Source: Blasia pusilla
Lineage: Eukaryota
Direction of reading: 5' to 3'
DNA length: 64,000 bases
Assembly: GCA_050084515.1 (NCBI GenBank)
Contig: CM114271.1
Location: 38,688,001 to 38,752,000 of the forward strand
How positions within the stretch are numbered: position 1 is the first letter of the stretch; the number at the start of each line of letters is the position of its first letter. Position numbers and translations under genes: made by a program. Under the pieces are notes generated by a model. That model was not told where the DNA came from. It worked only from the letters and a program-made list of their open reading frames with translations, and searched no databases. Positions 13,138 through 47,995 of this stretch are shown here, one piece after another.

Positions 13138-13147
13138 GCCCCCCTAA
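13138..13147 (-). promoter_or_regulatory. putative polypurine tract of DNMT-gypsy copy 1
   Basis: Minus strand TTAGGGGGGC lies immediately before segment A. The same motif is at the same position in copy 2 (33582-33590). Confidence 0.7.
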
Positions 13148-22358: not shown

Positions 22359-23801
22359 TACGGTTCATATAAGAGATCTTCTACTAGTGGAAGCAAGAAT
22401 TTATTCCAAAGTGTTGCAGTTTGAGCATGTGTGTTGTACGATATAATAATTGCAAATAAGCGACAAAGTAAAGAACCTATACGAATTGTAGTAGCTTCTT
22501 CAAAGCAAGAGAACACTTCCCTATCATCCTCAAGAAGTCCCAATTGGATAGAAGCCTCCTTGAATGTTGGACATAATACCCCATTAACAATTCTCTAACA
22601 TTCATACGTAGTTGCTCCTCGAACATGATGGAGAAGTAATCTCAACCAATGATGTTCTCCTTCACCTATGAGGAATTAAACTAAATGAGTTTATCCCAAC
22701 ATATAGATACATCGCTTTAGAGGTGGAATATAAAAGAAAGAAGTTGTGAGCATTTACTTGGATGAGTAAGGTATAAGCGACCAATGGGATGGCCACAACC
22801 ATTTTGTTTTTGTACCCTACGAATCCATCTCTTGTTACTCCAACGATAATAAGAAGGAAAATCTATGTATAGATGTTTTCCAGCACTAGAGTCAGATAGA
22901 TTGGTTGCAAACCATTGGGTCAATATTGTCTATCTTTTTAGTTGCAAAATATCTCCAAGAGAGACAACATCATTGAAGTAGACTAATTGTTGTTCCGGAA
23001 GATGGACTGCTAGTTGTACGATGCTTGGAAGTTCAACATGTAGACTAAACTTAAAGAGACGCCAACATGCCTCCGAAGAAAAAATATATTTGGAATAATG
23101 AGAATACCAAATATTTGAGTACGGACAATCACATGAAGTTGAGAAGTAAAATATAATGCATCAGAGAAGTCAATCCATAAAATCATACCTCGCATCAAGA
23201 TATGATGTTGTCTCGTCAATAACTTCAATTACATTGGATGTATCCATATCCTTTGACAACTTAAATGACACAGCAGCAGATCCTTTATAAACATATTTGT
23301 ATAAGTACTTGACAGCAGAAACACTACTTGTAATCTCCAAATTAATGTGACAATCAAATAGGATGCATAACATCGGATCGTAAGGTACAACCCAACGATT
23401 ATCCAATGAATGTTCGCTCTTAATTATTGCCCTTCAATTCTCCAATCTACAAAAACACAATAACAATCGTAATTAATCATGAATGAATGTATTAGAAGGA
23501 ATCATGAATACATATGCCTTAAAAATAAAAGGGTCCTTACCTACGATATATCGTATAACCATCTTTTGTTTGGGTAGTGTTGGACGCAAAAGCTTAAGGA
23601 TAGCCTTTTGTACATTTTTTTGTTTCCTTATCCATACACGGAGCATTTGGATTTAATGGTCCATATGGTCCGTGAACCATGCAATTAGTAACGGTAGAAT
23701 ATAACCTTGGATGGGTAGATTGATCAGGGATTGTAGCTGAAATGATACGATCATAATCAATTTTGGTACGTGGTTTATCCTCATAACCTAGAACAATAAG
23801 G

Positions 23802-24442
23802 TGTCGTGCGCATACACATCGCTACACAACATACATCGCTGTCACCGAACACACACACAAACACGCATGATCCCATGCTAACTCATGGCATCCAAACAAC
23901 GAGACAAGAAGAACCAAAATATCTCCAATAAAGTAAGATCCAATCTCTCTCTCCACCATCTCACACCATAGCTCTCAAAGGTGTGCACTATCTCTCATGT
24001 CAAACCAAACCCACTCTCCTAATGAGAGGTTTGGGTTACACTCACAAGGCAAGGTACCATAGCTCCGCCGCCTCATGCCAAGAGGTTCAACAAAGAGAGA
24101 ATGAGCTCTCAAGCTCTCTCTCCTTGAGGTATACCCCTCTCCTCTCCCAAGCTCTCTCCATGGTAACCTATTCTCCCAAGTCATCTCCTTGGCTCTTGAC
24201 CTGATGTAGGAGGTCAAGGGCCACTTACCAAAAATAGTAAGTCAATCATATACTCAAAATGGTACTTATCTAAAATAGTAAATTCCTCAATATGGCTCCA
24301 AATGAGCCGAAACGAAGGGGAAACCTGTTATCTCAGGTTTCAAGGGCCTCGATGAGGTCACCTCGACCTCATCGGGCGTGTCCTCCACTACTCATGAAGG
24401 CGCTTTATTAGATCCCACCGATCTATCCTAAAAGACGTGACA
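23802..24442 (-). mobile_element. solo terminal repeat of the DNMT-gypsy copy-2 family
   Basis: 641 bp, near-identical to 32810-33450, with TG...CA ends and an exact 4-bp TSD AAGG (23798-23801 and 24443-24446). It splits the Helitron codons GLPHVHVL|IVLG. Confidence 0.95.
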
Positions 24443-27400
24443 AAGGACATGCACATGCGGTAATCCTCTTTTTTGGAATTCCACCACATGGATGCATCCT
24501 ACAACTCGGCCTAATATCTGCTTCTTGATGATAAGTCGTAACAACTGCTTCTTTTTCTTCGCAAAAACCCGCACGACCAAATCTGGTCGGTCTGCAGTTG
24601 ATTGGCCAGGTAATAGGGCTGATGTAATCTTCTCCTACTTTGGATTGCATGTCATGGTTAAGAAGTAGTTAGGCTTCCCAAAATGTCGTACAATTGTCAT
24701 TGCATCATGATATAATTGATGCATATGACGTGGCCCTCCAGTAAAAGAAGAAGGTAATATAATGCGTTTCCCAAGCCTTCGGCTATCCGCATCTTGTCGA
24801 TGCATGGCATCCTTTACCCCTTGACATAATTCAGCCCTAAACTCCTTCTGATTTAAGCGTATCCATGATAATCATTGCATTTCCACAGTGGCATAGAGGT
24901 CAGCGATATATTCTTGAGTAAGTTGACGAAGCCGCAATAAGCGATTGTCATCTTCTCCTCCAACCCGCGTTTGAAGTCGAAAACATGCAAATTGCAAGGC
25001 CATAATACATTTTGTTCTTCTTTCCTCAACAATATCACCATAAACTATGTCCTCATCCATGCAATCATCTGAAGGTTCAGGATGTCCCTCCTCTCCATGA
25101 ATAATATGGCCCAATCATCACGATTCTCTACAACCTTCAATTCGCCCAAAGGGTATTCCAAGACGCCAACCTGCTTCACCATAGATAAATAACAAAACAA
25201 AGTGTAAGGGAATATATGCTTTGTTGAGGTCGGATATACGTTTGACTCCTCCTCCATGTAGTCGTATATTTATATCACGATGCTCAACGTGTTCACTTCC
25301 ATCACTCGGCAAAATAGCAGCAACTTCAGAAGCAATTGGTAAGTTATAGCGCTTTGCATCAAGACCTCTCTTACTTGCCTTGAGAATAATCCACATATTA
25401 AGATCACTTGCTGCATATGGCATATGATGAAAGATCTTCACATATGGATTGCATTCATGTAACATGTCTTGGAGACCTTTCAAAATATCCATATTAAGAT
25501 TAGAAGATGTAGACATAACTCTAACACGATTTTCCAATTCATTTGTAGTATCATGGATGTATAGTTGAGCAAATTGGGGATGTCCCCCTATATTAGGATG
25601 TAAAGGTCCAATGGAATGATAAATCCTGCCTTGGACCCTAAAGTGTCCAGTATCACCAATTTTTTCGTTTACATGTACCCCAGTAGATGCAAGTTGAAGT
25701 GCCGAATTATAAGCTCGAGCATGTATAAGAAAATGAACGCTTCTAGGACCAACACCCGAAATCAAGGATTTCAGAAATGGAGGAGATGATCTCAAGAGAG
25801 GTAAGTATATTCTTCCATGGCCACAACACATGCCATATGGTGAGTCACCAAATTTAGTACCTTTGACCACTTCACATTTCCAATACAAACATATCTCTGT
25901 CATAGAACCTAATGTATGATGACCGCTGATATGATTCAAACTCCTTTGTAATCGTAACTTATGAATATCACTTTCTTGAAAATTTGGCCTCCTTGCAAGA
26001 TTGAGTAATGTATTTAATCTTAAAACTCTATATCAAGGGTAGACGACGCACAAATTATAGAAGTATTTGGTATAGTGGCACGTTGTGGAGATAACAAAAC
26101 TTCATTAGGAGACATGGCATCTACTCTTGACCTTGATTCATCCCCAAGTTGGGCAAAAGTCGACGAATTGCTGGAAACTTCATCTTGAACAGGAATAAGA
26201 AGAGTGGTCGACAAATTGTTGATAAATCCATCTTGAACTCGAATAGGAAGAGCGGCTGAAGAATTTTTGACAACTTCATCTTGAATTGGAATAGGAGGAG
26301 TGGTAGGTAACTCAACTTGTGGTGGCCCAATCGTGGATGTATTCTCGATAACTTCATGAAATGCACTTTCAACTAACTCGAGTCTTGGCGATATATAAAT
26401 ATAGTCCGTTGATTGTTCGCTCACTTCTTGATTTTCTTCTACTATTATTCCATCCTTATTGGAAGGCTTGAGAAAATATGTCAAAATATGGATAAGAATA
26501 AATAAAAATCAAATATGGAGTAAATCAAGTAGTTATGAAGTGAATCAAATATAAAAAGTTAGATATAGGTACCTATTCAATGGAATATGTGCAATACTCT
26601 CAGGTTGAACTTGACCATTAAGCCCTTTCCTTCTTTTTCTATACTCTCCATAGTAATTCCTCTTTTTTTCTCTGAGAGCTTCCATTCTATCAGCTCGAAT
26701 AGCACGCTTTTGTTTTTGGGCTTCACCACGTAGAACTTTCCGAAAGTCACGTATATTGACAGGATTCAATGGGATTGGAAGTTTGGAACAACACATGAAT
26801 GTTAAAAGATTACGAAATCAAATGAAAAGTCAATATTTTGTGGGGTGGGAAATTGGACATGCTAAATGAGTGTCGATGTAGTAAACTTACGTTGGAGATG
26901 TTTTAGGTCAGAGTTCATCTTCAAGATGTGTTTGTTGTGCTAAGATTTCCTTGCGACAGACACGCTTTTTTTTTTTGTGCATTCGCACGCATCAATTTTC
27001 GGAAGCCACGCAAATCCGTAGGATTCGATGGAAGAGGAAGTCTATGCAACAATTGGGTTTATTGCATGAGAAAAATATATTGTCGAGAAAATGGTATGTA
27101 AGGCATCATGATTGAAATGGAAATAAGGTGCTTACTTCCTTACCCTAAGCAAAGGTTCTTACATCGGGGAGGTATTCTTCGATACTTCAATATGTCTTCC
27201 CGAACTTTGTTGTGAAATTGGCATATTTGTAATAATACCAAGTGGTCGTCTCTCCCTGTTTAGTGACAATCCGCCAACACTCACCATCTACATGACACAT
27301 AATGGAAGTATTGAGAATTGAAATAAAATGACCAAAAGAATAAATAATAAAAAGAAAAAAAAAGAAAAGAGAAGAAAAGAAAATAGGAGAGAAGAGAAGG

Positions 27401-30631: not shown

Positions 30632-30946
30632 TCAGCAGTCGTTGTGAGAAAAATGGGGAGTGTGTAATTAGTAAGAGGGAATAAATAAGGGTGAAGTTTG
30701 AATTCACAACCCTCGCAGTCACAACTTCTCGACAAATGAGAAGCCAATCTCATCGGACGACGCTGGTTTGAAGGATCCAAACCGTCAAGGACAAAAGGAC
30801 AAGAATTTGAAACAAAAGTTGCGGCCTAAAATGAAACCCTAAGTCCGTCGCACGTGCTAGGTCGGCTTCAGACGCACGAAAATTCCATGTTCGTAAAAAA
30901 AACTGTTACACGAGGCTATGAACAAAACCCTAAAACAGACTGCTTG

Positions 30947-31978
30947 TGTCGTGCGCCTACTCTCCTTGAACGTTAATCTCGTTTGTTGCGGAAGCGTGCG
31001 TTCAGTAGGTCACGCTCTCAACGCTGATCTGCATCCAAACACGCACTTCGGTTAGTCGGGTCTTGGATCAATCAGCGGGATTACTTTCCGAGTTCTCGTC
31101 TCGGACTCTCTTCAAGCTCAACCTTCCTAGTTTCGCGGTTTCCAACACGGGCAAGTCTCGAAAGACTTGGGGACAGACTTTTCAGTCGGTTCGGGAACTG
31201 AAACGGCGTTTCGCGCCTAGCGGTTCCAACTGTCCGATGAACATCCAATGAGTTCCTCACCAAGACTCGCACGAAGTGAATCTTGGGTTGGAATCCAAGT
31301 GTGGCATACAAAGTCCACTCCCTTGGATCAGGTTTGGGTTTCGGGTTTCCACGCCAAACTCCCGTTCCATCCCGTGCCTCTGAAACGCCGTTTGGCGCCC
31401 AAAGTGGGGTTTTGTTTCCTGAGACATCTCAGAGAAGGTACTCCCCTTACTAGTACTTCTGGGGATCTCCGGGGGCCCCCTACATTTAGGGAAAGACACC
31501 CGGGCCTCTCCAATTGGCCCTCAACCCGATTGCTCTCTCAATCGTTTTCAGCCAATATCTCAGCCTGTACTTATGTATTTGCTGAGATCTTTGGTGCGTT
31601 GGAAGCGTCTCAAGATCAGCTTTCCAACGCGCTCTTATTTGTCCCAAACGCATCTTGGAGCTCAACGTTATGGTCCTAAACACAGTCAGATTCTCCCAAA
31701 CGCTAGTCGTGTTCCAAACTGGTTCTCACCTCTTTGGCAACTAACCTCCCAAGACTCAACTCATCTCAAGTCTCGGCTCGCGTTTGGTCTAGGTTTCCTG
31801 GTCGCAACCACTAACGCATGAAATGCACAACTCTGTTCCGCGTTTCGTCTCTTAGACTTTTCCAAGAGACTCTTCCAAACGCCTCTCCAAAGCGCAAACC
31901 TCGCGGCGTGAGTTCCTTTGAGTTCTGATGTTTCGCTTGGCGCGTATTTGGTGTTGTTTGGTTATGAGGTTCACGACA
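30947..31978 (-). repeat. 3' LTR of the chromovirus
   Basis: TGTCG...CGACA, about 1.03 kb, adjacent to PPT AAGGAGGGGTGAG on the minus strand, matches 46367-47389. Confidence 0.93.
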
Positions 31979-32644
31979 CTCACCCCTCCTTAGAAGGTTG
32001 ATGTCCTCATCAACGCAAACCTTATTGAGGTTAAGTTCTGGGAAGCCGACCCCTTAACACAAAATTGCGTTCTGGTAGCTAGCCCGCAATTCCTCTTTTT
32101 GGCTTAAGTCTTAGGTTGTCGCTTGCAGCACTTAGACTTATTAGCTTCTGCTTTCCGATGAGCCTAGAGTAGTTCTGCTGAACTAATCTAACTATCAAAA
32201 TAAGCTCACTAAGTCTGCCACCTAACACTTCACTCACTATTTGTAAACAACCGCCTGTCTACCTAGCCAACTCGTACTACTTTTGGGTCACCTATACTCC
32301 ACCTAGGCGCGTCACTAGGTTCAGTCATGAAACATGAATGAGATCACCACAAACCCCAAGACAGACTCATCTGCCCCGCCGTTAGGGCGAGCCCAAATGC
32401 TAGTACTTCAACACTTGGTCCTGATCTAGATGCCTTATTTGAATACAAGCTCTCACCTCAAATACTCATTGTTTGGTCTCCTTGACTTACATCCTAAGCA
32501 TATGAAGAACTACTCAATGCCTTGCAAAACCAAACTCAAAATTACAATACAAGCATCGAACCTCCAAATCCATGTCTTCTTTATTGCAACAACTAAACCT
32601 TTCTAGTTACAACGGGTTATCGGCCCAAGCTTTCCGGTCACAAG

Positions 32645-32809
32645 TTATGTCCATTGCTTCACCATGTACTGACGCACGTGCCTTTCTTGCATCCATCTGA
32701 AGTCACGCAATGCTTCTTGCGCATCTTCTAGATCCGCCTCCGCAATCCAAGTCGCCTCTTTCACATGATAGCCTTTCCACTTGACCAAGTACTCGTACTT
32801 GGTGGCCCT
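32645..32809 (-). pseudogene. chromodomain of the chromovirus integrase (C-terminal half)
   Basis: ATKYEYLVKWKGYHVKEATWIAEADLEDAQEALRDF. It joins ETILRSTRR (42325-42355) once the nested element is removed. Confidence 0.9.
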
Positions 32810-33760
32810 TGTCGTGCGCATACACATCGCTACACAACATACATCGCTGTCACCGAACACACACACAAACACGCATGATCCCATGCTAACTCATGGCATC
32901 CAAACAACGAGACAAGAAGAACCAAAATATCTCCAATAAAGTAAGATCCAATCTCTCTCTCCACCATCTCACACCATAGCTCTCAAAGGTGTGCACTCTC
33001 TCTCATGTCAAACCAAACCCACTCTCCTAATGAGAGGTTTGGGTTACACTCACAAGGCAAGGTACCATAGCTCCGCCGCCTCATGCCAAGAGGTTCAACA
33101 AAGAGAGAATGAGCTCTCAAGCTCTCTCTCCTTGAGGTATACCCCTCTCCTCTCCCAAGCTCTCTCCATGGTAACCTATTCTCCCAAGTCACCTCCTTGG
33201 CTCTTGACCTGATGTAGGAGGTCAAGGGCCACTTACCAAAAATAGTAAGTCGATCATATACTCAAAATGGTACTTATCTAAAATAGTAAGTTCCTCAATA
33301 TGGCTCCAAATGAGCCGAAACGAAGGGGAAACCTGCTATCTCAGGTTTCCAAGGGCCTCAGCAGGTCACCCTCGACCTACTGGGCATGTCCTCCACTACT
33401 CATGAAGGCGCTCTATTAGATCCCACCGATCTATCCTAAAAGACGTGACAGTTGTCGTGCGCATACACATCGCTACACAACATACATCGCTGTCACCGAA
33501 CACACACACAAACACGCATGATCCCATGCTAACTCATGGCATCCAAACAACGAGACAAGAAGAACCAAAATATCTCCAATCGCCCCCCTAGCTGGTGGTT
33601 AGGTCCCTCTAACTCCAGATAGCCATCTATCCCTACCTACCATGACATACATCTCTCGGACGCTAAGAGCAAGAAGGCCGGGTGCTCATGTGGCCCCATC
33701 GTTAGTCGCCTCCTTGTCATCCATGTCATAGACACAAGTCGGAATGTAGAACTACCTTCT

Positions 33761-35147
33761 CTATGTACATCTGGGACACATCCATCGTCCCTGAGGAACC
33801 CTAGTGAGAGGTGGCGTCAAACATGCCATATGCCATCCTCTCGAACACCCATCACAGACTAGCATCGTGGCCGCACCACGGGCAGAACCACACAACATAC
33901 AACGCAAGCCTGCAGGAACTACTACTAAGCTCGGATCTACTGTACCATCAATGTTAGGAATGTGACATGGCGCACAATTACGCACATGGTCCTTCCATAC
34001 CATACCATCGCGTCCCTCCAGCAAGAGAACACCCGATGGCAAAATGTCACGCACTCTCAGGATAGTGCGCCCTGCAGTCACATCCAACGTCGTCGGTGCC
34101 GTCTGCTGCAAATAGACATAATCTCTTTGATGAAACCTCCGGATAGTTGGTCGATAACCACCACCTCGAATAGTCGCATACCTCAACGTATCCCGATGCT
34201 GTGCAATCGCCAAGTTCTTAACGCCATGGGCATCACTCTCGAAATAACTCACCCTCTCGAGAACATGCTCGCACCTATACATCTGGGTCATCAAGGTTCA
34301 GCACCTCACCAGCATCTCGACGAATGGTCGCAGGTAAATCTGGCTCTCGGCCATAAAGTAGCAAGTACGGTGAAAAAGACGCTAAGGATGCCTGCATGCT
34401 GAATTTGTATCCCATCGCCAACCATGGCAACTAGAGGTCCCAATCTCCTAGGTGACCTCTCTGCAAGCCATACTTGCGTAAACCCCTCTTCACCATCTGC
34501 ACAACTCTCTCCGCTAATCCATCCGCCTTAGGATGATCTCGCGAAGTCGTGCGGTGGTCGATGAGCGCCTGATCACACAAGGCTTGGAACTCACCGCGAA
34601 ACTCGGTACCCTGGTTTGTCAACACCTCAGCTGGTGCGCCATAATGACTTAGCACTCTGTCAAGGAAGGCATAAGCTACTCCCTCACTTGCTTTGTCAGG
34701 CAAAGCAACCAACTCGATCCACTTCGAGAAGTGCTCGACCATCACCATCACCAACACATAACGACTATGACGCTCCGTCAAGGGCAAAGGTCCTGCAAAA
34801 TCCAAACTCCATCTATACCCTAAGCCCATGATCGGTAATGGATGCAACTGTGGAGTCGGAGCATTGAACGATGCTCGGACCCGATCACACACCATGCACC
34901 TGGCAACAAACTGCTGAACGTCAGTCCGCATGCCTCGCCACCAATAATGAATCTGGAGCAAGCTATACGTCCGCTTCACCCCAAAGTGACCCAACTCCTC
35001 GTGGGCATGCTGCACTAGTCGTGCTCTCTCCAAAGGATGCGGCACTACGCGTACTCTGCCATCCTCCCAAACCCTCAAAACATGTGTCCCCTCCCAACGG
35101 AACCGTCGGCCCATTTGTAGGATCCGATCCCGCTCTCTAGCATCCAT
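33761..35147 (-). pseudogene. gypsy integrase with intact C4HC3 PHD finger (copy 2)
   Basis: HAHEELGHFG...CMVC, WSLDFAGP, TNQGTEF, DGLAERVVQ, then CMLCGSARGAATMLVCDGCSRGWHMACLTPPLTRVPQGRWMCPRCT. Confidence 0.93.
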
Positions 35148-35402
35148 GGTGCTCGCAAGGCGCCGAGACGAAGGTACTCTAAGACTACTCCATCATCATG
35201 AATATCTCGGCCACTTGTTGTGTCCTCACTGGCCTCGGGATCCAAAGACTCTCCACTAGACCTCGCCATCGAAGTCTCCACACTCTGGCTCTCCATAGCC
35301 AACATGCCTAAATAGGCTGACGCGTGCCATCCTGGCACCGACTCCTCATCACTCTCTCCATGCCATTGAGCTCCAGTCGCATCTCGCTGACTCGGGCATG
35401 GG

Positions 35403-36835
35403 TTACGACTCAACCCATCTGCATCCTGGTTGAGCGTTCAGTCTATGTACCACACGAAAATCATACTCCTGCAACAACAGAGCCCATCTCGCAAGCTTCC
35501 CTGTAAGCTTGTCGAACTCCATCAACCACTTCAGTGGTTGATGATCAATGATGATGGTAAAGGGGTTGCCGAATAAGTAACACCTAAAATGCGCGAGACC
35601 ACACCGCATGACCAAGCACTCACCCTCATACGAGCCGCCTTCGCCTCTGCGGCGTTGTTCGAGCGGCTAGCGTAAGCCACCACAAACTCTCTACCCTCAT
35701 CATCATGCTGGGTGAGCACCGCTCCAAGCTCCAACATGCTCCAATCTGTGTGCAACTGGAAAGGACGCCCCCTCATCGGTCTCCTCAAGATGGGTGTGGA
35801 CGTCAACCTGTCCTTGAGCAACTGAAATGCTCGCTCCTGCTCATCCCCCCAGTGCCACTCGTGATCCACCTTGGTGAGCAAGGTCAGCGGCTTTGCAATC
35901 GAACCGAATCCCTTGATGTATCGCCGATAGAAGTTCGCCAATCCCATGAATGCGCAAACACGGCTCACATCTGTAGGGCGTGGAATGCGTGAGATAGCCT
36001 CTACCTTCGTCTGCTGAACACCAAGGCCCCCTGGTTATATCGTATGACCCAAGTACTCAATCTGGTCGTAGAAGAACTTGCACTTGCCTAGATGTAGCTT
36101 CAGCCCATGTAATTGCAATCGTCGAAACACCTCCTCTAGATGTTGCTCGTGCTCCTCAAACGTGGCGCTAAAGACTATGATGTCATCAATATAACACCTA
36201 GCAAAATCCAGACCAGCCAAGATCCTATCCATGACCCTCTGAAACTCAGCCGGGGCGTTCTTTAACCCAAATGGTAAGAACCGCCACTGGTACAAACAAT
36301 CCTTCCCGTGAGGATCGATGCCCCAAAATGCCGTCTTCTGCCTGTCCTCCAATCTGATAGGCAGCTGATGATATCAAGCTCGCAAATCCAATGAACTGAA
36401 GACCTTTGCGTGACCAATCACATCAAAGATCTCCTCAGGGGTGGGCATGGCATACCTATCGGACTTCGTTTGCCGATTGATAGGTCGGTAATCCCCACAC
36501 ATCCGCCTATCCGTCCAATTGCCATGCACATCCTTCTTGGCGGGCATGACAGTGGCAAATGCATACTCTCCATGCGATATCTCCACTAGTCCAGCTCCGA
36601 CCAAGTCTTGGCTCTTACTCTGAATCAGAGCCCTCTCCATATCACTATACCTGTAGGGTCGTCGGAAGATCGGCATATCACTCGACAACTCAATGCGGAT
36701 CCCCGGTCCCTTCAGCGTACCCAAATCCTCCATGCTAAACGCAAAGCAGCTCCTATAACTCCTGAGGAACTGATGTATTCGGCGCCGCTCTCCTCCTGTC
36801 AACTTAGGGCCCATATCTGGCTCCCAAGTCTCCAT
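35403..36835 (-). pseudogene. reverse transcriptase and RNase H (copy 2), frameshifted
   Basis: RMCGDYRPIN, LPFGLKNAPAEFQR, CYIDDIIVFS, FMGLANFYRRYI, LHTDWS, IDHQPLKWL. Confidence 0.93.
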
Positions 36836-37179
36836 CGTGACTACGGTAGGACTCTCCGGCGCGGGTATCGGTGGTTGCTATGGTGCAACCCCGTCTCGAA
36901 CAACAACACTTGGCCGCTCTCCTGCAGCCAACTGCAAACTCTGATCTCCTCCACGTGCAATGCCCAAAACCACGCTCGATGTTGTGGCTATCATCTCCTT
37001 GCATACCTTCAAAACATCCCAAGAAGTCCAAGGGTGTCTCTCCCGATCTCCCCTGGTGCGTAGATCTCCTCGGGTCTCGCCCCCAGCCGTTGCCTCCACC
37101 GTCTCGGTAGGCATGGGGCTCACCAACGCAACATTGTGATCTGTCGCGATCTCATACGACGCCGCTCACCACTCCCAAG

Positions 37180-38140
37180 GCGAGGATCCATGTCAAGAAG
37201 TTCAGGTCCATCGCTGACCCAAGACATGGCGTCGCGTGATGCCTCGACATCGATGGTACGCTGCCGTCACTCTGTGGGAAATCCCATCGCCGCTCTCTCT
37301 CTCGGCGTTGGGCTCCACCAACCGCTGAACCTGGTCATCCCAAACCAAGCAGGATCGGCCTCCTTGTATGCACGGAAGCGGAAAACTCACAAACGTGGGC
37401 AAGGCGCCGGGCTTGCCTACCCTGTTGACCCCGATCGGCGGTGGTCGATCATCGTGCCTCACCGCCTCTGTGATCGGCGACTGGATCGAATGGAATCCAC
37501 TAACAAAGGGAGGGGCGCTCCACTCTCGCATACGCCCTCCATAACACCGCATGGGGCACCAAGTTGGTCCACCATAGAGGCGGGCGATGGGCTCTAGAAC
37601 CTACACTTGCCGCATCCAAGAACACTATTGGGCCGATCTAGGCACGCACCTGATGAGCACTCATCACGACCCGTGACCAAGAGTCTCCTAAGATCGGCAC
37701 ATTCTCCAGAATGTAGGCTGGAGAACGAGACTGGTGCTCCTGCAACTGCCGTAAGACCCTCAACATCTCCCAAAACAACCTGGACCGAGTGTCAGCCAAC
37801 CCGCTGCCTCGTCCAACACTCGATTGGCCCTGACATGGCCAACCAGCAATGACCAAATCAATGGTCCCTACCCGCTCTAAGTCCGGCGCCCCCAACAACA
37901 AAATATCCCTCGGTAGGGAATTCTGGTACCCTGTACTGCGGACGCAAACAATAAGTCGGGAAAACGTAGGCGTAATTGCGCCACATGTTGTAGTGAGACG
38001 CGCCTCGCAACATCATCACTCTCCACATACAAATCTTCGGCCAGACTCGCACTCTCGCTTGCAAAACAAAGACTAACCCGATTCTAATCACTCCAAAGAG
38101 ATCTAACACTCGAATACCCTCCTCCGGGTACACCACACAA
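37180..38140 (-). pseudogene. C5-cytosine DNA methyltransferase domain inside pol (copy 2)
   Basis: PEEGIRVLDLFG (motif I), DLVIAGWPCQGQSSVG (IV), GLADTRSRLFWEMLRVL (V), AYILENVP (VI), LVEPNAERE (IX), RRHVLGQ (X). Confidence 0.9.
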
Positions 38141-38599
38141 TGGGTGTAGTATCCAAGGGTGTCATCGTAGCACTCCCGCTACCTCGGGTTCCTCAGACTG
38201 TCACGCCTGGTGCAAACGCCTCGCTCCACGCTGATGCCGTGCACGTGTGCATCCGCTTAATCGTTGAAGCTCCTCGCCGAGCCCCACACCGGCACCTCTC
38301 CTCCACGGAATGATGCGGCTACAATAACACTCCTCTCCATAGAAATGTCGAACAGGAGTATCTCTGCATGGACATGTCCCTCAATCAAATCACTAGGCCA
38401 AGTGATGGGCACGCTAAATCTTTGCTAAGGTCGCCATCTCTCCTCGCCGTTCGATCATCGCACTGTGAATTGAACGGGTAATGAGCTAAGGCGCCCATCA
38501 CCTGGATCGCCATCCTGGTCGTAGGGACGCCGACTCCTCCCGTAATCCAGGGAAAACCCCATCGGGTATAACATCGCTCCACCAACCAAGATGTCGAGG

Positions 38600-40930
38600 A
38601 CTCAAAGATCGATCACTATCGCCTTGGCGCGCACCACGGACTCATCGCCAGGATGTCCGGCGAATACCCACCACAACCTCCTGTCGGGTGATATACTGTG
38701 TGGTACTCGCTCCACCCAAGGATGTCTATATCCGAAATGGACAACACTCCACATCGGCTCTCGTCAAGCCCAATCCTCGAATGACGCTTTCCCCAACATC
38801 AAGGGTTGCGCTCCCGAATCAACAAGGCGCTGCGGACTAAAAGATCTACCTCCGGGACTCACCAAGCTGGAAGACCTCTCCTCGGTTATCCAAAGCAACA
38901 CAACACCAGGAGAAGCCATGCACGCTCTATCGCAGGTCTAGCGGGCATCTCCGCCATCCTAGCGACCCCATGACCGCCATGAATCGGCGTGGATCGCCCG
39001 TGCATCCGCTCCAAGGGCAGGTCCATCACCTCCTCTGCAATCACCTCAACGTGATGCGGGAACTCCAACTCGCGCTCACATAGTGAAGCGGCCAGTAAAA
39101 AGCCTCGGCGGGCGTACCCCAACGTCATAACATCGGAAGCGAGAAAATAAAGGAGTGCGGTACACAACGGTGGCGCCCCAACAACGTGTTTCGACACATA
39201 GAGTCGCCGCTTTTCGCTTCTCCCATCGCCCTCCGTGCTTGCACACAACAACATTACCAACTCTCCGGGAACTTTGATGAGGACCCATCGATGGGGTCCT
39301 CATCGCTTCGGACAACGTGAAAGATTGAGGAAGCCTCGTTGTGGATCCAACTCTGTCGCTTCCAGCGTCACAAGCTGCGGCGGCCTCCATCTAGGCAACC
39401 CCGACATCCATCCGGGATCCTCCGGATCTCGGCTGCTCCATATGATGTCGATGCCACGGATCCGGCATCGGGTAACCTCAATGCCATAGCGGCAATCTGC
39501 TCCTGTAGCTTTTGTATCTAAGCAGCCATCCCAGCCTCACGTCCGGCATCTCCCTCGGCGCGTCTAGGTGGTGGTACTCTACCTCCTCCACGGGCAGCTC
39601 CACCACCCTGTCGGGCAACTCCAGCTCCTCGTCCCCCAACGGGACCACCTGGAGCACGATCTCTAGGCCCACTCGGACCGGCTACTCGCTCTGGTGCCCT
39701 CTCTAGCCCTCGGTCCAGACGTAACTCAGGATGTAAACTAAAACACCTGGCGCGTGTATGACCATACCTCTGACAATAGTCACACTGATAACCTCCTGGT
39801 GCAGCACCATCTCCTCCTCCATGCTATGGCACACGTCCATGACCCTGACGAGTGCAATCGCGCTGATGATGGGCTCCACCACATGACCAACAAGTAATAG
39901 TAGGCGGCTGCTGCTGAGCCGCATATGAAGGCGCAGGTCTCGTGGCACGGCCTCTCGGTATCCTCCCTGAGCTCGTGGTGCCCACGGTCAACCTATCTCG
40001 AGTCACGTTCTTTGCCGCAGGTGGTGCGAGACAATCGTGGATTGCTCGCCAGAACCCATGGTGGCTACGCTCTCCTCCGCCATGTTGCGCTCAATGTTCT
40101 CGGCGGTCCTAAAACATCTCTCAACGAGGGGAGGTGTTCATAAGAAGCACCCCTCCCGCACCCGTGTCCGCAGGTCGGTCGAAAGATCGCACACCATGAC
40201 CGGATAGCTGAGCCTCTATCACCCCCGAGTGGCGTTGATCAACCGGCGCAGCGAGTGTAAGCCTCACGCAAACTCTCACCCGGCGCCTGTGGAAGTCGTG
40301 GATGCTCTGCAACTTCTCCGTCCGTACCCCTAGTAGCTCGCCCTCAACTCAAGCAAAGAACTCAACCACAGGGTTGAACCGGGGACGAACCCGACTAGAC
40401 GGTGCAAACCTAAACCCTAAACCCGACTAGACGGTGCAATTGCTCCCGTGCGAGTGATCCCCCCTAAAACGTCACTAGTGGAAGAGGGAGTAGCCTCTCC
40501 TGACTCCTCCTCCTCATCTGGGAACGGCTCCGTCCATGACACATAATGTGGGTCATAGTAGAGCCTCCACGCCTCGATCTCACATGCATATCTCGAGAGA
40601 ACTCATGGTAATCGTCCATGGCGCCCCCTCTAAATCTTTGGAACATACCGTTCCATCTTTGTAAACGGGTTGAACTCTCTAGAGTGGCCCCCGGGAGTCG
40701 CACCAACTCCTAAACTCGCTTTAAAATCGTGCAACTCAATCGTGCCCCTCGCACTGAAAACCTCACGCGGTCCTCTACCCCGGTCGTCCATCTCGTACGC
40801 CCAACTGGTAGGACCACTCACAATGTGTGGCGATGTGCTCACAAACTCCTCTACACCCTCCCCCTTGTCTGACAATGACACAGAAGGAGGTCGAGGTGGT
40901 CCCTCACGTGGAGACCCTCGAAACCTCACG
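38600..40930 (-). pseudogene. gag and protease of copy 2, heavily frameshifted
   Basis: GTIELHDF, AMDDYHEF and CWSCGGAHHQRDC match copy 1 gag. LVDSGAQPLMLG lies near 38790-38830. Confidence 0.75.
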
Positions 40931-42371
40931 CCACTCCGCGTAAAACCTCTAGAGCTACTCTCGGGTTCACCACCTCGCCTCTCAAAGTCCCGAACAGACT
41001 CCGTGATGACCCTCGTGCCCCTCTCACCCGATCACTCTGAACCTCGTGAGGAATCCCTCAATCACTCATCCCAAACATGCGGCACTCGATCTACACTCTC
41101 TCTCCCCAAGACGTGTAACGTGCGGAAACACGCGGCGTGGTGCGGCAAATCGACCAGGCTATCATCTCATCGACAACCTACCCTCAACTCTGGACATCCC
41201 ACACAGGTCTATGTCCCCTAAACCACATACATAAATGATGCTCTCAGCATCCACACACCCAATATCCCCAAATAAATCCCAGAATCCCTCACACGTGCAG
41301 GGTAAAGGACCAGAATGGGTAACCTGAACACATGTCAATGTCGCTCCCCAGCAACTAAAAATCTCGACCCCAACTCGATCGTGGAGACAACTCCTCCAAT
41401 CAGCAAGTCATACTCCTCCCGTCATCGATCTTTGCTCAAAACTCCTCGATAGACAAATGCGGTCCCGGCCGAACGGTGCGGCGTTAAAGGCGACGAACGG
41501 CTACGAACGGCGCGGCCCTCGATGGTGGGATGCGGCACTCGGCGCATACCCTCCTCAATCAATAATAATCCCACACTCTGCTCCACAATGACGGTGCGGC
41601 TCGCGTCGAGATGGTGCGGTGCGCCACCCCAGCAGCGCACGGCGCGGCAATCGGCGGCGCGTTGCGGCTACGGGCGCCACGGCACGATACTCGATCGCCG
41701 CTCAGCGGCTACCAATCACAACATAGCAGCATGAAATCAAAACTCAAACACCATAACCGAGGTCATCGCCTTCATGGTTGATGAAGAAAGCTGCGATGAC
41801 GGTGGCGGCCAAAACAAAGTACGTGGTGGCGACGCAAGTCAAGGAATCAACGAACGTCATTGAAGACCCTCCACTCCGTAATGGCGGCAATGGCCACTCT
41901 CCTAATGAGAGGCTTGGGTTACACTCACAAGGCAAGGTACCATAGCTCCGCCGCCTCATGCCAAGAGGTTCAACAAAGAGAGAATGAGCTCTCAAGCTCT
42001 CTCTCCTTGAGGTATACCCCTCTCCTCTCCCAAGCTCTCTCCATGGTAACCTATTCTCCCAAGTCACCTCCTTGGCTCTTGACCTGATGTAGGAGGTCAA
42101 GGGCCACTTACAAAAATAGTAAGTCGATCATATACTCAAAATGGTACTTATCTAAAATAGTAAGTTCCTCAATATGGCTCCAAATGAGCCGAAACGAAGG
42201 GGAAACTTGCTATCTCAGGTTTCCAAGGGCCTCAGCAGGTCACCCTCGACCTACTGGGTGTGTCCTCCACTACTCATGAAGGCGCTCTATTAGATCCCAC
42301 CGATCTATCCTAAAAGACGTGACACCCTACGTGTGGAACGCAGAATGGTCTCAACCTCGAACTCTGGTTCC

Positions 42372-45300
42372 TCATTTCTGATGACCGGTTGTGGTCTCAA
42401 CATCATCATCCTTTCGCTCCGGACGCATATTGTCTTGAAGATACTTCTTCAATAATGACACATGGAAAGTCGGGTGAATCTTGAACTCGTTTGGCAGCTC
42501 CAACGTGTATACATCCTCAAACGGCTTTGCCTTGATCACATACGGTCCAGCATACTTGGCTGACAATTTTGCGGACAATTCCTTCGGAAGAGTGAGATTC
42601 TTAACACTCAACCACACTTTTTCCCCAACTTGGAAACTCACCTGGCGCCGACTTTTGTTAGCATGCTTTATGTACCTTAGTTGAGCTTTGGTGAGACTTT
42701 CTCTCGCTCGCTCTTGTTGTTCCTGCATTTCCACTAACAAACATTCCGCCGTTGCTTGAGGAGTGTGTGTCGATGTATTGCCCTTCGAAAGAGCTAAGTC
42801 AAGAGGCCCTTCTGGTTCTCTTTGATACGCCTGAAGAAACGGAGATTATCCGGTTGCAGAATGCGTAGTCGAGTTGTAACAATACTCAGCCATACTTAAC
42901 CACTTGGCCCAATCTCTTTGGTCCGCACTCACGTAATTCCGTAAGTATTGGTTTACGACCGAGTTTACTTTTTCCGTTTGCCCATCCGTTTGAGGATGGA
43001 AGGCCGTACTAAAGCTGAGTTTGGTCCGGAACCTCCTGAATAGATGTTTCCAAAAAGCACTGGTAAACTTCGGATCCCGATCGGACACAATGCTCCTAGG
43101 CAATCCGTGCACACGCCACCAACCATCCAGGAATAGTCGGGAAGTCGTGTAGGCCGTCGCAGACTCTCTCGTCGGCACAAACCTCCCCAACTTACTAAAC
43201 CGATCAACTATCACAAGTATAGCGTTGTATCCCTCAGATTCTGGAAGACTCGTAATGAAATCCATGCTAATGCTTTGCAAGGGTCCCTCCGGGATTGGCA
43301 AAGGATGAAGTAAACCTTGTTTCTTCGCATAAGACACGCGGTTCACTTGGCAGGTCACGCATGTTTTCACATATTGAACAACATCTTCCTTCATGTTGGG
43401 CCAGAAGAACCTCTTAGACAAAACAGCAAGAGTGGATTTCTCCCCTTTGTGTCCCGCCAAAGGTCCATCATGACATGCCACAAACACCTTGGTCCGTAGC
43501 TTGCCTTGGCCTACATAGATCCTGCTCTGCTTAAACCTTAGCAAGCCGTGTCTCAAACTCAGATTGGCCACCTTCTCGCCCCGCTTTAACTTCCCAAGGT
43601 ACTCCTGCTTATGCATCCTTCATGTATCCTTCACGAATCCTTCTTTCCAAGTCTGTTTCATTAGGGAACATTGCTCTCAACACTTGTGTCGTCGATGGCA
43701 TGTGTTCATCCCTGCGACTTAACGCATCTGGAATGACATTGTCTTTCCCCGGCTTGTGGATTAGCTCCACATTCATCAACGCCAAGGTATCATGCCACCG
43801 AAGTTGTTTTGGCGTCACGCGATCCTGGGTCTCAAAATACTTGAGCGATATGTTATGTGTGAATACTCGAGTCCTGTGAAGTCCCAAATAGTGACCCCAC
43901 TTCCTCAAGCAATGAACCACCGCAAACAACTCTTTCTCATGAGTAGGCCATCTCCTTTCGGTGTCGCTAAGGTTCTTGCTTTCGTATGCTACAGGCCTCT
44001 CTTTTTGCACCAACATTCCTGCAATCGCGAAATCACTAGCATCCGTGTGCACCTCGAACGGTTGTTCAAACTCCGGAAGTTTCAGAACTAGTTCCTGCGA
44101 GAGGATCTCTTTGACTGGATTGAACGCTTTATCCACTTCCTCGGTCCATGTAGTATTGGCAAAATTTGGGGTCCAATCCGTGAGAGGTTTCACTATGCCC
44201 GAAAAGTTCTTCACGTATGTCCGGTAAAACTGGATAGCTCCGATGAACCTTCTCATCCCCTTCACCGTGGAAGGCGGTTCCCATTCGGCAATTGCGCTCA
44301 CCTTCTCCATGTCTGGACTCACTCCATCCGCACTAACCACATGCCCCAAGAACTTGATCTTCGTCAAACCGAACTCACTCTTATCCGCATTCGCATACAG
44401 CTTGTTCGCCCTAAGTTTCTCAAACACCGTCTTCAAATGTCGAGCGTGCTCCTCTAGTGTTTTCGAATAGATGAGTATGTCATCTATATAGATGATCACA
44501 AACTCATCCGTCTCCTTGTGAAAGATGGAGTTCATCAAAGTGGTAAACGTCGGAGGCGCATTACAAAGACCGAAAGGCATTACTACAAACTCTAACGAAC
44601 CGTATCTCGTTCTACACTCAGTCTTCTCTACATCCGCTTCGGCAATCCGAATCTGATAATATCCTGATTTCAGGTCAATCCGGCTGAAATACTTGGCACC
44701 CGACAATCGATCAAAGAGGTCATCCATCCTCGGTAGAGGATAGTTATTCCTTACCGTCACTTTATTCAGCGCCCGATAATCAACACAGAGTCTCAACTTC
44801 CCATCCTTCTTCTTTACAAAGAGGACGGGCGCCCCATAAGGTGACTTGCTTGTTCGGATGTAACCCCTCTCCAGAAGTTCACCCAACTGTTTCTTCAACT
44901 CAGCAAGTTCCTCTTGATTCAACCTATATGGTGCCTTTGAAGGTGGTTGAGATCCTGATATCACCTCAATCTTATGATCAACCGCCCTATGTGGTGGCAA
45001 CTCAGTCGGAAGCTCCTTAGTCAACACATCTCCAAATTCTTTCACAACTTTTTTGAGTGTTTCAGGGATCCCCCTTGAAGCTGAGTTCTGATCTCTGCAT
45101 CTCGCGCTTGCATCATCCTCTACTCGTCTCATCAAGCAAAGGAATCCTTCCTCTAACTCGGCCAAACTCGTCCTCGTGATGGCGTTCACCAACTCCGTCT
45201 TTCTAGGCACCTCACGAACCAATCTGACGTCCGTCCGTTTGCCGTTAACCAAGACGCTCAACCTCAAAGGTCTCCGCCTCAGTTCCACCTCATACGCATA

Positions 45301-45735
45301 CAAGAACGTGTTCCCCAAGACTCCGTCGATTCCGTCCATGTCGCAAACTGTAAAATTCTCCTTCAACTCAAATACTCCGCAACTCACAACTAGCCCTAAA
45401 ACCAGATCTGATGTCTGGTGGGACTTGCCTCCCGCGAATCCTACCCTAATGGGTTCATCCGCCTTGGTGGTCGGCAATCCCAACGTTTTTACAATTCTCG
45501 GACTCAAGAATGAGTGCGAAGCACCTGTATCAACGAGCAACATCACATCGCGATTAGCGATCTTGGATCCTAGGTAAACCAGATTGGGCATTCTCTTGGT
45601 GACTTGTAGAGATGTATCTAGATCTCCCTCCGATAAATGCTTAGCGGCAAACGCAATCATACTCAGTTTACTAACCTTGGGCCTAACACATTCCTTAGCC
45701 ATATGTCCGGGTTCGCCACAATTGTAGCAAATCGC
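42372..45735 (-). pseudogene. chromovirus pol (zinc knuckle, PR, RT, RNase H, integrase)
   Basis: CYNCGEPGHMAKEC, LLVDTGASHSF, RLCVDYRALN, MPFGLCNAP, YIDDILIYS, VHTDASDFA, HDGPLAGH...CVTC, ISMDFITSLP, SDRDPKF, HPQTDGQTE, YAGPY, IHPTFHVSLLK. Confidence 0.95.
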
Positions 45736-46352
45736 TTTGGCATTCGTTGACTTCGTAAACGGCGGCCCCTTGGCTTCGCGTTGAGTTCCACTCGTTTCGC
45801 CGCTGGGGCGAGAGACCCTCCATGGTCGCGTTCACCCCCATTCCAAACCCTCTTGGATGTCCCTTTGTTCTTCTGTAACTTAGAAAAACTTTTTGTCTCA
45901 AAGGGTTTTGGGTGTTGGACTTCATCGTCCCCAATCCGCTTGGCTAGTCTCAAGAGATCCGCGCATGTCTCTGGGATGTGAGGCATACAAAAGAGAGCCT
46001 TCTCGGCACTTGGTTTGAGCCCACTTCTCGGATCGTTTAAGTTTGGACCCGCAGGTCCCGCGGAAAGATTTTCGGTTGGAACATCCTCATGTCGGGGACT
46101 CGGCACTTCGGGAGTCGCAAATTCCACCTCCGGCTCTCGGTCCGTCATTGATTCGTCTCTTGGCTTCTTTGCTTTGACTCGCGGTTTCCTCGGTTCTTTG
46201 CCCTTGGTCGCCATTTTCGAGTTGTCGCCTTTTCTCAGATCTCCTCCTCGCCTCTTGCGTTCCTCCTCGGCGTCGCGGTCTTCCGGCTACCTTGAGTTCT
46301 CCCCAAACGTCCAGATCTTCAACGACCCCAAGTTCACGCTCATCAAGGAATT

Positions 46353-46364
46353 GCTCTGATACCA
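46353..46364 (-). promoter_or_regulatory. primer-binding site (tRNA-Met) of the chromovirus
   Basis: TGGTATCAGAGC lies two bases after the LTR end at 46367. Confidence 0.92.
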
Positions 46365-46366
46365 CG

Positions 46367-47995
46367 TGTCGTGGGCCTACTCTCCTTGAACGTTAATCTT
46401 GTTTGTTGCGGAAGCGTGCGTTCAGTAGGTCACGCTCTCAACGCTGATCTGCATCCAAACACGCACGCCGGTTAGTCGGGTCTTGGATCAATCAGCGGGA
46501 TTACTTTCCGAGTTCTCGTCTCGGACTCTCTCTTCAAGCTCAACCTTCCTAGTTTCGCGGTTTCCAACACGGGCAAGTCTCGAAAGACTTGGGACAGCTT
46601 TTCTGGTCGGTTCAGGAACCTGAAACGGCGTTTCGCGCCTAGCGGTTCCAACTGTCCGATGAACATCCAATGAGTTCCTCACCCAGACTCGCACGAAGTG
46701 AATCTCGGGTTGGAATCCAAGTGTGGCGTATAAAGTCCACTCCCTTGGATCAGGTTTGGGTTTGGGTTTCGCGCCAAACTCCCGTTTCATCCGTGCCCTC
46801 AAACGCCGTTTGCGCCCCAAAGTGGGGTTTCGTTTCCGAGACATCTCAGAGAAGGTACTCCCCTTACTAGTACTTCTGGGGATCTCCGGGGCCCCTACAT
46901 TTAGGGAAAGACACCGGGCCCCTCATTGGCCCTCAACCCGATTGCTCTCTGAATCGTTTTCGGCCAATATCTCAGCCTGTACTTATGTGTTTGCTGAGAT
47001 CTTTCGTGCGTTGGAAGCGTCTCAAGATCAGCTTTCCAACGCGCCCTTACTTGTCCCGAACGCATCTCGGAACTCAACGTTATGGTCCTAAACACAGTCA
47101 GATTCTCCCAAACGCTAGCCGTGTTCCAAACTGGTTCTCACCTCTTTGGCAACCAACCTCCAAGACTCAACTCATCTCAAGTCTCGGCTCGCGTTTGGTC
47201 TAGGTTTCCTGGTCGCGACCACTAATGCATGAAACGCACAACTCTATTCCGCGTTTCGTCTCTTAGACTTTTCCAAGAGACTCTTCCAAACGCCTCTCCA
47301 AAGCTCAAACCTCGCGGCGTGAGTTCCTTTGAGTTCTGATGTTTCGCTTGGCGCGTATTTGGTGTTGTTTGGTTACGAGGGTCGCGACACCGTGCCTCTG
47401 AAACGCCGTTTGGCGCCCAAAGTGGGGTTTCGTTTCCCGAGACATCTCAGAGAAGGTACTCCCCTTACTAGTGCTTCTGGGGATCTCCGGGGGCCCCCTA
47501 CATTTAGGGAAAGACACCCGGGCCTCTCCAATTGGCCCTCAACCCGATTGCTCTCTCAATCGTTTTCGGCCAATATCTCAGCCTGTACTTATGTATTTGC
47601 TGAGATCTTTGGTGCGTTGGAAGCGTCTCAAGATCAGCTTTCCAACGCGCTCTTATTTGTCCCGAACGCATCTCGAAGCTCAACGTTATGGTCCTAAACA
47701 CAGTCAGATTCTCCCAAACGCTAGTCGTGTTCCAAACTGGTTCTCACCTCTTTGGCAACTAACCTCCCAAGACTCAACTCATATCAAGTCTCGGCTCGCG
47801 TTTGGTCTAGGTTTCCTGGTCGCAACCACTAACGCATGAAATGCACAACTCTGTTCCGCGTTTCATCTCTTAGACTTTTCCAAGAGACTCTTCCAAACGC
47901 CTCTCCAAAGCGCAAACCTCGCGGCGTGAGTTCCTTTGAGTTCTGATTTTCGTTTGGCGCGTATTTGGAGTTGTTTGGTTATGAGAGTCGCGACA
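46367..47995 (-). repeat. 5' LTR of the chromovirus (46367-47389) abutting a second, partial LTR (47390-47995)
   Basis: 47390-47995 corresponds to about 31372-31978 and ends in CGACA followed by the TSD. Confidence 0.9.

Follow-up and report, generated by a model that had tools for sequence, protein, structure and literature searches.

We analysed a 64,000-nucleotide stretch of the Blasia pusilla genome (contig CM114271.1 of assembly GCA_050084515.1, positions 38,688,001 to 38,752,000 of the forward strand; hereafter the window, in whose own numbering all positions are given) and identified in it a 9.5-kb retroelement, termed copy 2, at 32810-42324 on the minus strand. With a probability of about 0.85, copy 2 is a defective, high-copy Ty3/gypsy-type retrotransposon that belongs to the streptophyte 'Gypsy-DNMT3' lineage and was inserted into an older, ordinary Gypsy element. 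Its domains are ordered as gag with a CCHC knuckle, a protease-like region, a DNMT3-like C5 DNA methyltransferase (DNMT), an in-frame TAG, reverse transcriptase (RT), RNase H (RH), integrase (INT) and a C-terminal PHD finger. Pfam searches of the minus strand detected, in order, C-5 DNA_methylase, RVT_1, RT_RNaseH, Integrase_H2C2 with rve, and PHD. Together with guide alignments, these matches gave the order RT, RNase H and integrase with gag upstream, which is that of Ty3/gypsy elements.

The ends of copy 2 are formed by split direct repeats, all on the minus strand, and not by two identical plain long terminal repeats (LTRs). The element begins with TGTCACG at 42324 in the 5' terminal repeat A1 (41894-42324) and ends with GACA at 32810 in the 3' terminal segment B2 (32810-32937). 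An internal copy of this segment, B1 (33453-33580, ending in CACGACA), is followed by a 2-nt spacer, AC (33451-33452), by the second A copy, A2 (33019-33450, located by self-blastn and alignment), and by x, 81 nt between A2 and B2 (32938-33018). The layout is A1-body-polypurine tract (PPT)-B1-nn-A2-(x)-B2. A1 and A2 were 98.8% identical over 432 bp (one indel and four transitions, of which two fall in a single CpG; 0.9% difference), and B1 and B2 were the same, a 129-bp repeat at 32809-32937 and 33452-33580 being 100% identical. The ends are of the TG..CA type (TGTC...GACA) and are flanked by a target site duplication (TSD), CCCT, at 32806-32809 and 42325-42328. A solo A-x-B unit of the same family on the minus strand (23802-24442, TSD AAGG) was 97.7% identical to 32810-33450, and the near-identity of the repeats reported in an earlier note, made from the sequence alone, was thus reproduced.

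The other family in the window is represented by copy 1 (12554-22358, minus strand; A1 21993-22358, B1 13030-13136, A2 12662-13027, B2 12554-12660), which has the architecture and the repeat layout of copy 2, except that its spacer is GC and it lacks x. DNA identity between the two copies was 67-72% and was confined to the DNMT-pol part (about 72% in pol, by self-blastn); in gag and most of the repeat sequence, no DNA similarity between them was detectable. The first 90 nt or so of B were dissimilar and the last 37 nt matched at 33 positions, so the earlier statement that B of copy 2 has no evident similarity to that of copy 1 holds for the former part and fails for the latter. Judged from these sequence comparisons, the two copies are separate families. 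The earlier proposal that copy 2 represents a second, diverged family of like architecture is upheld by the shared domain order and homologous TAG, by the restricted identity, and by the position of copy 2 outside the copy 1 clade in both trees described below.

The coding parts of copy 2 were placed on the minus strand as follows. A 5' untranslated region (5'UTR; 40792-41893) precedes the gag-homologous region (39057-40791), which was aligned to the Marchantia protein P0003 and holds the CCHC knuckle at 39740-39787; the knuckle string YQCDYCQRYGHTRARC lies within the open reading frame (ORF) 39518-39823. The protease-homologous region (38350-39056) aligns to residues 560-800 of P0003. Neither window copy gave a Pfam match for an aspartyl protease, and the relatives P0016 and P0018 have such matches at the same relative position. 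The DNMT domain was located at 37194-38130 by PF00145 and alignment. RT and RNase H (35463-36877) were recognised by RVT_1, RT_RNaseH and RT_RNaseH_2 and aligned to P0010 and P0211, and the integrase, comprising the H2C2 zinc domain, the rve core and a C-terminal region (PF17921 and PF00665), was placed by guide alignment at 33908-35170. The last domain of ORF2 is the PHD finger (33767-33901; PF00628, E 5.2e-12), followed by the stop codon at 33761-33763. A conserved polypurine-tract block (33581-33616, ending in CCAGCTAGGGGGGCG) lies directly upstream of B1.

The element into which copy 2 is nested is a conventional, DNMT-less Ty3/gypsy element at 30946-47995. CCHC, protease, RT and RNase H occupy 43609-45831, the integrase 42846-43619 and an SH3_Tf2-1 domain 42372-42845. 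The two LTRs of this element (30946-31979 and 46366-47390) share 94.8% identity. The 5' LTR region of this outer element also contains a tandem duplication of about 600 bp (46791-47389 and 47390-47995).

Selection on and decay of the methyltransferase

We examined the class of the DNMT by motif, sequence and structure comparison. The PF00145 match in copy 2 spans 37638-38012 (E 2.9e-11), and the ORF of the same extent contains GWPCQG, LFWEMLRVL and YILENVP. Copy 1 keeps the first two; its third motif is YILENVS. Motifs I, IV (GWPCQG), VI (ENV) and VIII-X of copy 2 are recognisable in the normal, non-rearranged order, with motif I reading FGVI, not FGGI. Among PDB sequences, the top match of the copy 2 fragment was DNMT3A (E 2.6e-4), barely ahead of M.HhaI, and the C-terminal half of the copy 1 DNMT had no PDB sequence match at E <=0.01. 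The relative P0175, 76% identical to the copy 1 DNMT, has an AlphaFold model with a pLDDT of 85, and the PDB matches listed for this model by Foldseek, to rank 49, were all DNMT3A/B/C (best E 8e-18, TM about 0.8 on the target). On sequence and model comparison, the methyltransferase of the copy 2 lineage is of the DNMT3 class. In intact relatives, this enzyme would methylate the newly made DNA of the element or its surroundings. Against such an activity stands the DNMT of the Klebsormidium Gypsy element, which produced no methylation in yeast, a result that its authors call inconclusive (PMC5890265).

Decay was counted by frameshift-aware alignment of three intact relatives, P0003 and P0010 from Marchantia and also P0211, to both copies. 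Stops and frameshifts numbered 6 and 11 in gag of copy 2 (2 and 1 in copy 1), 4 and 8 in the protease region (4 and 1), 2 and 2 in the linker (none in copy 1), 1 and 5 in the DNMT domain at 38130-37194 (2 and 1), 0 and 2 in the ORF1 tail (none in copy 1), and 4 and 6 in ORF2 (4 and 3). ORF1 of copy 2 as a whole carries 13 stops and 28 inferred frameshifts, about 41 disruptions. It tells against so heavy a load that the frameshift counts in gag, which is poorly conserved, may be inflated by the alignment method. The open frames, which are independent of these counts, reach 253 aa at most in copy 2 and 137 aa in its gag-protease-DNMT part. Copy 2 is unable to make any of its proteins and is not autonomous, and its own DNMT is a pseudogene; if it was mobile at all, it probably moved with proteins supplied by relatives. 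The observed/expected ratio of CpG was 0.90 in copy 2 (0.93 in ORF1) and 0.55 in copy 1, a difference in keeping with repeats that are younger in copy 2 (A1 and A2 98.8% identical) than in copy 1 (94.5%).

To compare the domains by codon, the Nei-Gojobori method was applied to the two window copies. In the DNMT (303 codons), pS was 0.72 and pN 0.29, giving a pN/pS of 0.40 (bootstrap 0.35-0.47). The corresponding ratios were 0.25 for RT, 0.25 for RNase H, 0.20 for integrase, 0.32 for PHD and 0.60 for gag. Synonymous sites are saturated between the window copies (pS 0.64-0.78) and only pN/pS is trustworthy; the nominal DNMT dN/dS of 0.16, at a dS of 2.4, is saturated and unreliable, and pN itself is biased downward, as the guide-based alignment prefers amino-acid likeness. 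Pairwise dN/dS in related metagenome copies had a median of 0.57 for the DNMT (55 copies, 923 pairs, dS 0.1-0.3) and of 0.37 for RT-RH (16 copies, 65 pairs), values that mix selection and decay, since 35 of the 55 DNMT copies contain more than two stops. The comparison of the DNMT with RT suggested in the earlier note gave ratios below 1 for both domains, with saturation between the window copies; near-identical metagenome DNMT pairs had a dN/dS of 0.87. These sequence comparisons supported the view that the DNMT has long been kept in the lineage by purifying selection, less tightly than RT.

As a proxy for a genome-wide census, reads of two raw whole-genome sequencing runs (about 1.97 Gb read from each) were placed at >=90% likeness, with depths summed over both directions; these depths are not convertible to copy numbers. 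The bases placed on 33451-42495 amounted to 0.51% of the 1.97 Gb in run X20. Depth was 1,100-1,670 in the RT-INT bins, 490-950 in the four DNMT bins, 370-570 in the 5'UTR and about 3,000 in bins with A or B. Of 87,677 reads placed in run X20, 1,480 were at least 99% alike, 22,177 were 95-99% and 64,020 were 90-95% alike, and C>T and G>A together accounted for 633 of the 1,127 variable places. The recent activity of the family asserted earlier is therefore borne out in part: the insertion of copy 2 is fairly young, as its A repeats differ by 0.9%, B1 equals B2 and its CpG ratio is high, but most family reads are at 90-95% and copy 2 is not autonomous.

The strongest competitor of the reading above, which we consider possible though clearly the less probable, is that the family-2 DNMT is a decaying relic, the family or a sub-lineage of it having long been copied by the proteins of other elements with the DNMT unselected there. 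Disruptions are concentrated in the gag-protease-DNMT part of copy 2 (about 10 per kb, compared with about 3 per kb in RT-INT-PHD) and are evenly spread in copy 1 (2.8 and 2.3 per kb). The terminal branch of copy 2 is 0.46 in the DNMT tree, compared with 0.16 for copy 1, and the INT-PHD branches are 0.13 and 0.15, respectively. Mean read depth over the DNMT bins is about half of that over pol (693 and 1,332), which also counts against a selected DNMT in this family, and copy 2 has no primer site after A1. On the other side, 56-86% of family reads differ from the window by an indel at 37213, 38778, 38892 and 39141 (among the 12 best-supported of 253 indel rows); the last three of these sites lie at, or <=6 nt from, inferred frameshifts, indicating less damage in other members. 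Copy 2 retains intact catalytic motifs IV and VI, the CpG ratio of ORF1 is unlike that expected from long neutral decay in a methylated genome, and the DNMT pN/pS stands at 0.40. We retain the reading of copy 2 as a broken member of a lineage in which the DNMT was selected.

Relatives, the conserved stop codon and the PHD finger

Proteins homologous to the window copies were sought with three probes. With the DNMT half of copy 1, 19 longer proteins were matched, and identity to the named ones (Marchantia polymorpha, Calypogeia fissa and Sphagnum) reached 65-72%. A search with the DNMT fragment of copy 2 gave 33 proteins at up to 71% identity, named from the same three taxa, and the INT-PHD piece of copy 2 matched 72, with 82-83% identity to two proteins, one of them from Marchantia, and 51% to one from the chlorophyte Tetrabaena. 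An exhaustive protein search yielded 767 representatives at E <=1e-3, 403 at <=1e-10 and 23 at <=1e-30. We sorted 189 proteins by the copy-derived probes that they matched. In 24 of them (type I; named Marchantia, Sphagnum and Closterium) the DNMT precedes RT; in 55 (type II; named Cymbomonas, and including P0052, P0058 and P0082) it follows RNase H and precedes the integrase, usually with a PHD finger; the remaining 110 matched the DNMT probe only. The type II order was confirmed by Pfam in three of five proteins tested. Elements of the present kind, with DNMT before RT, are widespread in liverworts, Sphagnum and Closterium, and the lineage splits into old families. Four air metagenome runs (X6 and X9-X11) contained 11-28% of the sampled element words, a hint that spores or fragments, from the host or from a relative, may be carried in the air.

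A quick maximum-likelihood tree, built from 112 DNMT domains, placed a single branch between types I and II (SH-aLRT 98). It grouped the two window copies in a 27-row clade with bryophyte proteins (SH-aLRT 100), within which copy 2 stood outside a group of copy 1, Sphagnum, Marchantia and Calypogeia (support 85-88). The INT-PHD tree (114 rows) was congruent: in a 9-row clade (support 99), copy 1 belonged to a 6-row subclade (99) and copy 2 lay outside it. Retrotransposons have acquired DNMTs repeatedly, according to the available parts of PMC5890265 and bioRxiv 10.64898/2026.05.21.726589, which would allow the two families to have captured a host DNMT3 independently and converged in architecture. 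We consider this very unlikely, because the common clades in both trees are accompanied by the same DNMT position between protease and RT, by a TAG at the homologous codon, and by linker and tail sequences that can be aligned between the copies. The earlier suggestion that the DNMT is an old, selected feature and not a one-off gene capture is consequently sustained for the lineage, given its relatives in Marchantia, Calypogeia, Sphagnum and Closterium and the pN/pS of 0.40; it does not extend to copy 2 itself, whose DNMT is a pseudogene.

The TAG between the DNMT tail and RT occupies the homologous codon in copy 1 (16442-16444) and copy 2 (36878-36880, minus strand, followed by CAA CCA), and the Marchantia gene model P0003 terminates exactly at the homologous stop. 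Among the metagenome loci (L001-L077), 52 hold both sides of the stop and 42 of these keep a single frame. Exactly one stop was present in 39 of the 42 same-frame relatives (30 TAG, 9 TAA); the next codon was CAA in all 39, and CAA CCC followed in 37. A single in-frame UAG between gag and pol is the leaky stop of the murine leukaemia virus type, and the leaky context known from plant viruses is UAG-CAR-YYA, which the TAG CAA CCA of copy 2 resembles. ORF2 would accordingly be expressed by read-through of the TAG in its conserved context, and the DNMT would then be produced with Gag and protease, in excess of RT and integrase. A point against read-through is an ATG 6 nt downstream of the stop, conserved in the 39 relatives and copy 1, which makes re-initiation possible; copy 2 has no ATG at this position.

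The PHD finger of copy 2 retains eight of eight zinc ligands (Cys4-His-Cys3), and ORF2 stops one residue past the last Cys. ORF2 of copy 1 likewise ends one residue past the last PHD Cys, and its PHD finger (13309-13596) lacks one zinc ligand (LVYDRC, where copy 2 has LVCDGC). The top PDB sequence matches of the domain were CHD4, PHF12, KAT6A, KDM5B PHD1, DPF3, PHF21A, ATXR5, AIRE and UHRF1, proteins that we take to be readers of the unmodified H3 tail; a Trp is present at the position of the cage residue of H3K4me3 readers. By sequence, the PHD finger resembles the class of unmodified-H3K4 readers. It would tether the integrase to chromatin without H3K4 methylation, much as a chromodomain does in chromoviruses. 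No chromodomain was found at the integrase C-terminus, where the PHD finger stands instead.

Split repeats and insertion

The split-repeat layout was also found in the metagenome loci L056, L073 and L040, and B-A-B pairs occurred in 8 of 33 metagenome loci of at least 9 kb. The B1/A2 joint of copy 2 reads GACA-AC-TGTC, that is, the 3' end of the element abutting its 5' end. This B|A joint was present in about 520 reads of independent read sets, with one or two variable letters between B and A. When A ends were followed in the reads, 2,871 loose read ends ran into x, with a consensus identical to 32989-33018, and 306 reads joined A directly to B. About 81% of A ends continued into x and about 10% into the copy 2 5'UTR, from which we infer that most units are A-x-B solos or 3' ends. 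Alignment of x to both strands of the remaining element gave no convincing match for its origin. At the A2/B2 joint, L040 has an insert of about 20 nt, which is absent from copy 1, L056 and L073.

Of the six ends examined, four combined TG..CA with a 4-bp TSD (CCCT in copy 2, AAGG in the solo, CATA in L073 and TCTC in L040); for copy 2 and for the solo, the match has a chance expectation of 1 in 256 each. Copy 1 is flanked by CGCA and TACG, which differ, and the end of L056 is damaged. These ends and duplications show insertion by a DDE integrase. The flanks of copy 1 (10596-12546 and 22363-23230) are 76-77% identical to 61150-63993, a second, uninterrupted copy of another repeat, in which a paralogous empty site for copy 1 lies near 63104/63112; it is too diverged to settle the target duplication of copy 1. 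On both sides of the solo, inverted matches of 67-74% identity (6156-9202 against 23597-26028) indicate a further repeat family, which may be interrupted by the solo.

Two explanations of the unusual layout can largely be set aside. Errors of long-read assembly could have produced split repeats and frameshifts alike, and most frameshifts do resemble deletions of 1 nt (in ORF1, 19 of 28 are 2-nt skips). However, a run of at least four identical bases occurs in only 5 of 34 frameshift contexts, so the frameshifts are not linked to homopolymers; raw Illumina reads from two runs and contigs from two further ones contained all of the B|A, A-x and A|B joints; and unrelated metagenome contigs have the same layout. 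An artefact is accordingly most improbable. Still less credible is a DIRS/PAT-like tyrosine-recombinase element: A1...B1-A2-B2 is the repeat layout of PAT/Ngaro elements, and the Fig. 4 legend of PMC5890265 makes a like remark, but copies 1 and 2 possess a DDE integrase, had no tyrosine recombinase among their Pfam matches, and belong to a group with TG..CA ends and 4-bp duplications.

The Gypsy reading of copy 2 leaves the question of how split repeats are replicated. The polypurine block (CCAGCTAGGGGGGCG) directly before B1 in copy 2 is nearly the same in copy 1, L056, L073 and L040. The 14 nt that directly follow A1 in copy 1 (21992-21979) are perfectly complementary to 22165-22152 inside A1, and CTCAAAGAAC after A1 is common to copy 1, L056, L073 and L040. 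By analogy, the site after A1 in copy 1 looks like Tf1-type self-priming. The PPT and self-priming-like sites imply B-A as the functional LTR. The 5'UTR of copy 2 contains no recognisable primer-binding site, and its local alignment to that of copy 1 revealed no conserved block; a 10-nt inverted match (41767-41776 and 42275-42284) was discarded as a primer site, being at the estimated chance level.

One scheme would have the split repeats arise from a circle formed from a normal [B-A]...[B-A] cDNA and opened at the B|A joint, giving the genomic form A-body-B-nn-A-B. The exact A2|B2 joints of copy 1, L056 and L073, the 4-bp TSDs of L073 and L040, and the variable 2-nt spacer (AC, GC, TC and AT) speak for this permuted two-LTR-circle model. 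We nevertheless regard it as rather unlikely. A broader proposal, equally doubtful in our estimate, is that the lineage, from zygnematophyte algae to mosses and liverworts, combines Tf1-type replication with integration via a circularised-cDNA junction (GACA nn TGTC), a DNMT3 made from the abundant Gag-protease frame, and a PHD finger that targets H3K4-unmethylated chromatin; each copy in the genome would then be a two-LTR circle in permuted form. If true, the element would be both self-methylating and self-targeting, and could rise to thousands of copies in the genome of a land plant. Several results weigh against these proposals. Copy 2 has no self-priming-like site, the 40 nt after its A1 having no complement to A and none elsewhere within two mismatches. 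The occurrence of x after about 81% of A ends means that x is inherited or faithfully remade, which a simple end-joined circle leaves unexplained. Such a circle holds two identical B|A joints, yet five of five full elements share one permutation.

Comparison with known systems

Copy 2 shares single traits with several systems. As in leaky-stop gag-pol systems, a single in-frame UAG lies between polyprotein parts with a conserved downstream context (CAA CCC, or CAA CCA in copy 2), whereas here the upstream product includes the DNMT besides Gag and protease. Chromoviruses also carry a chromatin-reader module at the very end of the integrase, presumably steering integration; their reader is a chromodomain, here it is a PHD finger, and the DNMT is additional. 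With Tf1/Sushi (Tcn1) elements, copy 1 and the metagenome relatives share a stretch complementary to A directly after A1 and have no tRNA-type site. The repeats here are split whereas theirs are plain LTRs, and copy 2 lacks the complementary stretch. The Tcn1 clade is present in mosses and club-mosses according to the available text of PMC6317226, a classification of plant Gypsy lineages in which, as far as that text extends, the words PHD and methyltransferase each have no occurrence.

Type II elements (RT-RH-DNMT-INT-PHD; Cymbomonas) and EpiLTRs resemble the present lineage as Gypsy elements with a C5 DNMT and an integrase-terminal reader. Type II elements differ in that their DNMT follows RNase H and lies on the other side of the DNMT tree. 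The EpiLTR DNMTs are described, in the accessible portion of bioRxiv 10.64898/2026.05.21.726589, as a sister group of DNMT4 that is coupled to an adenine methylase and to a chromodomain. DIRS, PAT and Ngaro elements share the split direct repeats and an internal B|A joint that is the end-to-start joint of the element; they have a tyrosine recombinase where an integrase is found here, and the TSDs and TG..CA ends are features of the present elements.

The closest known system is KnitGypsy-Dnmt3 of Klebsormidium nitens, a Gypsy element with a DNMT3 that has 'the same structure of repeats as a DIRS retrotransposon' (de Mendoza et al. 2018, PMC5890265, from the text available). According to the same text, its DNMT has a Ka/Ks <0.2 and it is present in few copies. 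Streptophyte Gypsy-DNMT3 elements are treated as known in the available parts of PMC12344493 and bioRxiv 10.64898/2026.05.21.726589. KnitGypsy-Dnmt3 and the present lineage have in common the Gypsy domains, a non-rearranged DNMT3-type methyltransferase in the coding region, DIRS-like repeats and a streptophyte host. Purifying selection on the DNMT is probably shared as well, the Ka/Ks <0.2 in K. nitens standing beside a pN/pS of 0.40 between the window copies and a median dN/dS of 0.57 among the mostly decayed metagenome copies. Their comparison is one of description, not of sequence; the nearest proteins here were from liverworts and mosses, and no K. nitens protein was among the named matches in protein searches with the window copies. 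They further differ in abundance (few copies in K. nitens, a very high copy number here) and in the place of the DNMT, which here lies in ORF1 before the conserved stop and which the available text of PMC5890265 assigns to the 'Pol polyprotein ORF'. A PHD finger is present here, and the word PHD has no occurrence in the main text of that paper, its figure and supplements aside.

Copy 2 is therefore of a kind already known. The literature searched, which covered sources other than subscription journals, contained no description of Gypsy-DNMT3 elements in bryophytes. New details are the stop context, the likeness of the PHD finger to unmodified-H3K4 readers, the PPT and the priming-like site of copy 1. 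A transposon with its own silencing-type enzyme is a puzzle, and the published example from the plant lineage comes from a single alga in which copies are few. The present results indicate that the lineage can reach about 0.5% of a large genome and that its DNMT is always accompanied by a PHD finger at the integrase terminus and by a conserved leaky-stop context. Its split repeats combined with integrase-type insertion pose a testable question, namely how the ends are regenerated. Hosts of the lineage such as Marchantia offer tractable systems for asking how a transposon benefits from methylating DNA.

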